From: Armatimonadota bacterium
GTDB taxonomy: Bacteria; Sysuimicrobiota; Sysuimicrobiia; Sysuimicrobiales; Humicultoraceae
DNA: 64,000 nt
Direction: 5' to 3'
Assembly: GCA_037443565.1 (NCBI GenBank)
Contig: JBBIOB010000010.1
Coordinates: 1,329 to 65,328, forward strand
Part shown: positions 60,036-60,155 of the stretch, one piece after another
Layout of the letters: every line of letters starts with the position of its first letter
How positions within the stretch are numbered: position 1 is the first letter of the stretch
Made by a program: the position numbers and the translations under genes
Notes under the pieces: model-generated
What the model saw: only the letters and a program-made list of their open reading frames with translations
What the model was told of the DNA's origin: nothing
Databases searched by the model: none

Positions 60036-60155
60036 CTACATGATGTCGCCGCCAATGCAGCAACAGCAGCAGCAACAACAGCCTGCACCGCCGCCGTCAC
60101 CGTCGAACAGCACGTCTCCCTCCTCCAGCTCGAGGATCTCTAGGTCCATGACCAT
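60036..60155 (-). CDS. TOMM precursor peptide, 39 aa: acidic leader MVMDLEILELEEGDVLFDGDGGGAG plus core CCCCCCCCIGGDIM
   Basis: Strong RBS (GGAGGAGGTG) 4 nt before ATGGTCATG. Eight consecutive Cys codons (TGT TGT TGC TGC TGC TGT TGC TGC). Lies ~140 nt upstream of the C-YcaO-dehydrogenase genes on the same strand. Confidence 0.7.
   Translation of the reverse strand: MVMDLEILELEEGDVLFDGDGGGAGCCCCCCCCIGGDIM

Follow-up and report, generated by a model that had tools for sequence, protein, structure and literature searches.

The 64,000-nt stretch of DNA analyzed here (the window) carries on its minus strand a compact operon of seven genes, arranged in the order A-C-D-B-ATPase-permease-protease, the first of which encodes a small precursor peptide with eight consecutive cysteines (Table 1). 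The C gene starts 143 nt downstream of the precursor stop codon and is directly followed by the YcaO gene, in agreement with the first-pass annotation, which had placed the peptide immediately upstream of YcaO machinery. Two stop codons overlap the following start codon, specifically at the C/D junction (TGATG) and at the ATPase/permease junction (ATGA). Simple scans returned neither a sigma-70-like promoter nor an intrinsic terminator around the precursor gene, and neither Rfam families nor tRNAs were found anywhere in the window; the 143-nt spacer between the precursor and C genes has a predicted fold no more stable than that of shuffled sequence (z = -1.04), and thus no attenuator is claimed. 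Third-position GC is 0.76-0.85 in six of the seven operon genes (0.92 in the permease gene) and 0.91-0.93 in the flanking genes, which suggests a foreign origin or low expression of the operon.

Table 1. Positions in the window of the features of the precursor gene, the other operon genes, and the genes of the copper neighborhood.
Feature	Position	Strand	Details
Shine-Dalgarno element GGGAGGAGGTG	60156..60166	-	read from sequence
Precursor ORF	60036..60155	-	39 aa if read from first ATG
Precursor, likelier form	60149-60036	-	second ATG (60149), 37 aa
Leader MDLEILELEEGDVLFDGDGGGAG	60081..60149	-	23 aa; 8 acidic, 0 basic residues
Cys8 run	60057..60080	-	TGT TGT TGC TGC TGC TGT TGC TGC; predicted thiazole substrate
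C-terminal tail IGGDIM and TAG stop	60036..60056	-	
C protein, E1-like cyclodehydratase partner	58933..59892	-	319 aa; TIGR03882 59.8 bits (cut-off 36.9)
D protein, YcaO ATP-dependent cyclodehydratase	57605..58933	-	442 aa; PF02624 E=3.9e-58
B protein, SagB-type nitroreductase-fold azoline dehydrogenase	56809..57597	-	262 aa; PF00881 E=7e-23
ABC transporter ATPase, DrrA-like	56070..56804	-	244 aa
ABC-2 type permease, DrrB-like	55351..56073	-	240 aa; start overlaps ATPase stop
Membrane metalloprotease, PqqD-like RRE fused to M50/site-2-protease-like domain	54254..55309	-	351 aa
CopC-CopD fusions	6253-8400, 42154-44514		
CopC	44511-44918		
P1B ATPase with N-terminal cupredoxin domain	17204-19519		
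P1B ATPases, two further	25119-28013, 33230-35227		
Cupredoxin	32796-33197		
CsoR-like repressor	40424-40711		
YHS-nitroreductase fusion	40714-41502		
CDF transporter	46687-47631		

The precursor ORF is read from the minus strand, where the reverse complement translates to MVMDLEILELEEGDVLFDGDGGGAGCCCCCCCCIGGDIM followed by a stop codon; the plus strand of the same interval gives no meaningful translation. The 39-aa ORF originally proposed is real, but a 37-aa form, MDLEILELEEGDVLFDGDGGGAG-CCCCCCCC-IGGDIM, is the likelier product. The second ATG was taken as the start because public gene calls use it, with the exact 37-aa sequence (P0003) called in both NCBI and Logan assemblies, and because the spacing of the GGAGGAGGTGA element is as in relatives. 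The ribosome-binding site noted ahead of the ORF was confirmed: the second GGAGG of GGGAGGAGGTG ends 8 nt before the second ATG, and in most related loci GGAGGAGGTGA lies 5-6 nt ahead of the MELQ/MDLE start. Family alignments place in the leader a conserved motif, (E/D)L(Q/E)(I/V)xEL(E/D)...LFD, and a Gly-rich linker, so that linker and Cys run read GDGGGAG-C8 in the window precursor. No curated NCBIfam or Pfam model covers the precursor.

The first-pass annotation had read the peptide as a RiPP precursor beside azole-forming machinery, and the models for that machinery agree, since the C, D, and B proteins all score above their NCBIfam cut-offs (D, 260.3 bits against TIGR03604, cut-off 219.25; B, 95.4 bits against TIGR03605, cut-off 78.4; C in Table 1). 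The C protein has an N-terminal RRE leader-binding domain and, in the alignment, conserved CxxC...CxxC cysteines; its N-terminal profile matches PbtF (chain 8t19_A, E=4.2e-6) and, more weakly, LynD, and in a sequence search of the PDB full-length C hits the N-terminal domains of TruD/LynD, with LynD, TruD, and MusD at E=3e-5 to 2e-3. The same three enzymes match the D protein at E=1e-10 to 1e-12, ranking below the archaeal stand-alone YcaOs MJ1094 and 6ci7. The D protein ends in ...NPYPHPFP, of which PYPHPFP is invariant across its clade; a C-terminal PxPxP motif is reportedly typical of azoline-forming YcaOs. Apart from the two archaeal proteins in the case of D, LynD, TruD, MusD, and PbtF are thus the closest solved structures for C and D; however, C and D are fused in LynD, TruD, and MusD and encoded by separate genes here, and PbtF is free-standing and has just 86 residues, corresponding to the region matched by the N-terminal profile of C. 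The cyanobactin and thiopeptide products of such systems also differ, being macrocycles or thiopeptides with isolated azoles rather than linear contiguous polythiazoles.

The last gene of the operon encodes a protein with the motifs HELAH and NLLPALRTDG, a Peptidase_M50 match, and a weak PqqD match, and residues H181, E182, H185, N271, P274, D279, and G280 are invariant in the family alignment. Its N-terminus aligns by hhalign with the RRE profile of the C protein (94% probability, E=1.5e-7), so that predicted leader-recognition domains are carried by two operon proteins, C and the protease. Removal of the leader is the predicted task of this RRE-M50 protein. Nearly all of its 351 aa, the N-terminal domain among them, align with NF041824, the model for the daptide intramembrane metalloprotease (model positions 7-340 of 379); however, the score of 88 bits lies below the cut-off of 300, which marks the protein as a relative and not an equivalog, and the operon contains no daptide enzymes.

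To recover relatives, the D protein was used as query in a genome scan with one genome per species, which gave three loci in uncultured MAGs, each with a Cys7 small ORF upstream of C. A precursor profile searched against sets of 5.8 billion and 1.84 billion proteins retrieved this precursor family only (seven clusters at 50% identity, E<=0.001). In total, the recovered loci hold at least 17 distinct precursors, all from uncultured high-GC bacteria (65-70% GC). Conservation of the Cys run in related clusters, which had been named as a check on the precursor, was found throughout: a small ORF with a run of Cys7-9 is present in every related operon recovered, and the order of the seven genes is identical on every contig of sufficient length. 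The small ORF, its RBS, the leader motif, and the Cys run are kept even between loci only ~66% identical in DNA, and the pairwise pN/pS of the precursor is, as a rough estimate, ~0.39. Smaller dips in third-position GC also occur in two of the related loci, in L008 and, for A1, C, and D, in L016. The D proteins form a discrete clade of 16 clusters at 55-97% identity, followed by a gap to 37% or less. The two nearest outgroup YcaO clusters, at ~35% identity, came from a metagenome contig and from Nonomuraea sp. CA-218870. The outgroup precursors (L017, 6084-6779; L018, 5147-5821) are unusually long, at 224-231 aa, and end in contiguous C/S/T-rich cores; a tryptophan halogenase gene adjoins one of the two clusters.

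Across the family, precursors of 36-44 aa share one layout. The leader motif is joined by a Gly-rich linker to the Cys run, which in most members is followed by a single variable residue; a Gly-rich stretch then leads to an acidic residue located 1-3 residues from the C-terminal end. The run is preceded by Gly or Ala, with linkers in relatives reaching GSGGGG-C7, and Cys7 is the commonest length, Cys8 occurring in the window and in P0029 and Cys9 in P0030/L014. Two loci (L005 and L006) are 96% identical in DNA to the window operon but have one TGT codon fewer, so that run length evidently shifts one codon at a time. Between loci, the run varies in its use of TGC and TGT, and the sole amino-acid replacement, found in L015 (core CGCGGCSCCCCCCNGGEQM), is a Ser encoded by AGT. 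Ser can stand in for Cys, and Cys for Ser, when azoles are formed but not in thiol chemistry, and the Ser inside the L015 run fits the former rather than the latter. Two tandem precursor genes with different leaders, both with Cys7 cores, were observed in L016 (2657-2939), and several precursors (L003, L008-L010) begin with a duplicated MELQMELQ, giving two in-frame candidate starts.

The operon and its relatives combine all four components looked for in a LAP pathway, specifically a YcaO cyclodehydratase, an E1-like C protein with an RRE, a SagB-type dehydrogenase, and a conserved Cys-core precursor. With high probability, the peptide is therefore a LAP precursor, and its predicted product is a polythiazole of seven or eight contiguous rings. 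The chemistry of the pathway follows from the family membership of the enzymes: once the 37-aa peptide is translated, the winged-helix RRE of the C protein would bind its acidic leader (…LEILELEE…LFD…), the YcaO D protein would cyclodehydrate one Cys after another to thiazoline at the expense of ATP, and the SagB-type flavoprotein B would oxidize the thiazolines to thiazoles. The membrane M50 metalloprotease, with its own RRE, would then cut off the leader, and the DrrAB-like ABC-2 pair would export the product and/or protect the producer. Each thiazole takes in the carbonyl of the preceding residue, and a fully converted Cys8 thus could not be cleaved directly before Cys1. Two cleavage sites are accordingly conceivable: with Gly-1 retained, the product would carry eight thiazoles (calculated [M+H]+ 1326.18), whereas cleavage directly before an unmodified Cys1 would leave Cys1 free and give seven. 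Conversion of all eight adjacent Cys may also be incomplete, as one Cys stayed free in the Lap-1 peptide described below. Either way, the expected product is an amphiphile of ~14 residues, in which 7-8 contiguous thiazoles form a rigid and strongly hydrophobic segment ahead of a short Gly-rich tail that ends in an acidic residue.

Cores of this design have been described before. According to the first-pass annotation, known LAP cores are interrupted by other residues and a homopolymeric Cys8 core is highly unusual; published studies, both bioinformatic and experimental, show this to be wrong. According to Cox et al. [quoted passage not shown] In streptolysin S-type cores, 9-10 heterocyclizable residues are contiguous. 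The faecalisin group defined in that study comprises 124 clusters, mostly from Enterococcus faecalis; faecalisin cores follow the pattern G4-12-C8-11, and the sequences retrieved here have Cys8 to Cys11. In E. coli, expression of the E. caccae Lap-1 cluster (core G11-C9-GSGSATLEEIGK) gave a peptide with eight thiazol(in)es and one free Cys (Ayikpoe et al., 2022; PMC9576775). Its extreme hydrophobicity prevented purification, and the authors suggested that it acts like streptolysin.

Faecalisin and Lap-1 resemble the window family in their Gly-rich linker and homopolymeric Cys run (8-11 residues there, 7-9 here), in a short Gly-rich acidic tail (GGATGLEE and GSGSATLEEIGK there, IGGDIM and GGGEVQ here), and in having discrete C and D proteins and an ABC transporter. 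In contrast, the leaders are unrelated, those of faecalisin being two to three times longer, and a search of 1.84 billion proteins with the window-family precursor profile returned no faecalisin at E<=0.001. The C protein of faecalisin belongs to the McbB type, PF27891 being found only in that locus; the faecalisin YcaO has 329 aa, and BLASTP detected no similarity of either protein to its window counterpart (E=0.51 for D, E=28 for C). A sequence search of the PDB gave no relative of the faecalisin YcaO, whose placement near MccB17 therefore follows Cox et al. (2015) and the McbB Pfam match. Precomputed Pfam annotation of one faecalisin locus contained no RRE-M50 protease, and the hosts are low-GC Firmicutes rather than the uncultured bacteria of 65-70% GC found here. 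By these comparisons, the window family is a rare lineage independent of faecalisin, with the core design in common and, at the level of sequence, the ancestry not.

Streptolysin S (SagA/SagBCD) likewise resembles the window family in having Gly followed by a contiguous heterocyclizable run, including Cys5-Cys7, against 7-9 residues after Gly or Ala in the window family, and the D and B proteins of the window belong to the SagD and SagB families. The core length is also near that of the short Borrelia cores and of the contiguous heterocyclizable region that forms the minimal cytolytic unit of streptolysin S, which has 11 residues (PMC4513790). Streptolysin S cores, however, mix Cys, Ser, and Thr over 9-10 or more residues, whereas only one of the 17 or more window-family precursors has anything other than Cys in its run. 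Membership in the streptolysin S family was considered and rejected on three grounds: the protoxin model TIGR03602 gives the window precursor 8.4 bits (cut-off 35), over the Cys run only; the SagC model TIGR03603 gives the C protein 27.5 bits (cut-off 187.65); and the protease is an RRE-M50 metalloprotease and not a CaaX-type SagE.

By analogy with the poly-heterocycle region of streptolysin S, we tentatively propose, as the most likely role, that the product is a secreted, membrane-active antagonistic agent, a role that is plausible though far from assured. The same biosynthesis could instead yield a polyazole directed not at membranes but at an intracellular nucleic-acid target, whether gyrase, DNA by intercalation, or the ribosome, which we regard as unlikely. 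Contiguous azoles are classic DNA-binding motifs and count in favor of such a target, for which microcin B17, bleomycin-type bithiazoles, klebsazolicin, and phazolicin provide models, and a DrrAB-like exporter fits self-protection against an intracellular toxin. Gyrase and the ribosome are among the known LAP targets (PMC9576775). However, the core is very short and has no recognizable uptake-mimic sequence, the operon has no McbG-type immunity protein, and the core design is closest to the cytolysin poly-heterocycle region and to Lap-1, the latter with its proposed streptolysin-like role.

The copper-rich surroundings noted in the first-pass annotation are a genuine property of the window, which holds two CopC-CopD fusions, an extra CopC, three P1B ATPases, and cupredoxin, CsoR-like, YHS, and CDF genes; a MoeZ-like ThiF-rhodanese, a sulfur transporter, and a rhodanese also lie at 9613-13257, inside the dense copper/sulfur region spanning 6253-47631. 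From this setting it had been speculated that a contiguous polythiazole, or the unmodified poly-Cys, acts as a Cu(I)-binding metallophore (chalkophore). In the form of this idea considered here, the peptide, as a poly-thiazol(in)e or with part of its Cys run unmodified, would be secreted, bind Cu(I), and cooperate with the products of the neighboring CopCD, P1B-ATPase, and CsoR genes. A further locus bears on this idea, namely L014, whose D protein is 79% identical and which shares the FadJ flank, as its operon lies directly beside CDF and CopCD genes. The nearest metal gene in the window, that for the CDF transporter, is nevertheless 6.6 kb from the operon end, with an aminotransferase gene and a 4.5-kb Lhr helicase gene in between, and the 3-10 kb flanks of five other lineages (L007, L008, L011, L015, and L016) contain no copper or CDF homolog. 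In four of these (L007, L008, L011, and L016), the operon follows an AdoHcyase gene and lies upstream of DAP-dehydrogenase/aminotransferase genes, and in L015 a beta-lactamase-family gene takes the place of AdoHcyase. The copper linkage is thus restricted to the window and L014; L015 combines a window-type leader with a non-copper context, so that the copper adjacency looks like a single derived relocation. Neither an MbnB/MNIO-type enzyme, an uptake receptor, a binding protein, nor a metal-sensing regulator was found among the seven operon genes, and the dedicated dehydrogenase implies aromatic thiazoles and therefore few or no thiolates. The copper link of the operon is weak, and the chalkophore idea, unsupported by these comparisons, is improbable. 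About as improbable is a version in which the product, the longest uninterrupted all-thiazole chain (hepta- to nona-) of any pathway characterized so far, evolved independently of the enterococcal poly-Cys LAPs and was recruited, in the lineage of the window, as a copper metallophore and not as a toxin. As regards the arrangement itself, the M50 gene is directly followed by the CDF gene in L014 (11434-13505), and the window has a class-V aminotransferase and a 1,514-aa Lhr helicase between them (48267-54249), which reads as an insertion/deletion difference between close relatives.

The chance that the ORF is spurious, a fortuitous (GCA/ACA)n repeat that is intergenic or antisense to the 386-aa plus-strand ORF at 59032..60192, is negligible: Tandem Repeats Finder does report a period-3 repeat at the Cys run, and the long plus-strand ORF does overlap the precursor, but the (TGY)7 run occurs once in the window and in 0 of 100 dinucleotide-preserving shuffles, independent gene callers annotate the small ORF, the plus-strand ORF has a low third-position GC (0.74, versus 0.90-0.93 in real flanking genes) and is antisense to the conserved C gene, and the conservation of ORF, RBS, leader, and Cys run between divergent loci rules this explanation out.

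The precursor family is genuine, conserved, and rare, and its Cys7-9 core is a recurrence of a known design rather than a new category. After the streptolysin S-type and faecalisin-type LAPs, it is the third lineage with a Cys run as an azole-peptide core, and its independence from faecalisin by sequence suggests that evolution has arrived more than once at contiguous polythiazoles as a functional solution. The family also documents a LAP pathway with an RRE-fused M50 intramembrane protease, where a review of RiPP leader proteases lists M103 proteases for LAPs and M50 proteases only for epipeptides and pearlins. With its small precursors and compact operon, the family could make a convenient system for the study of product structure and activity.
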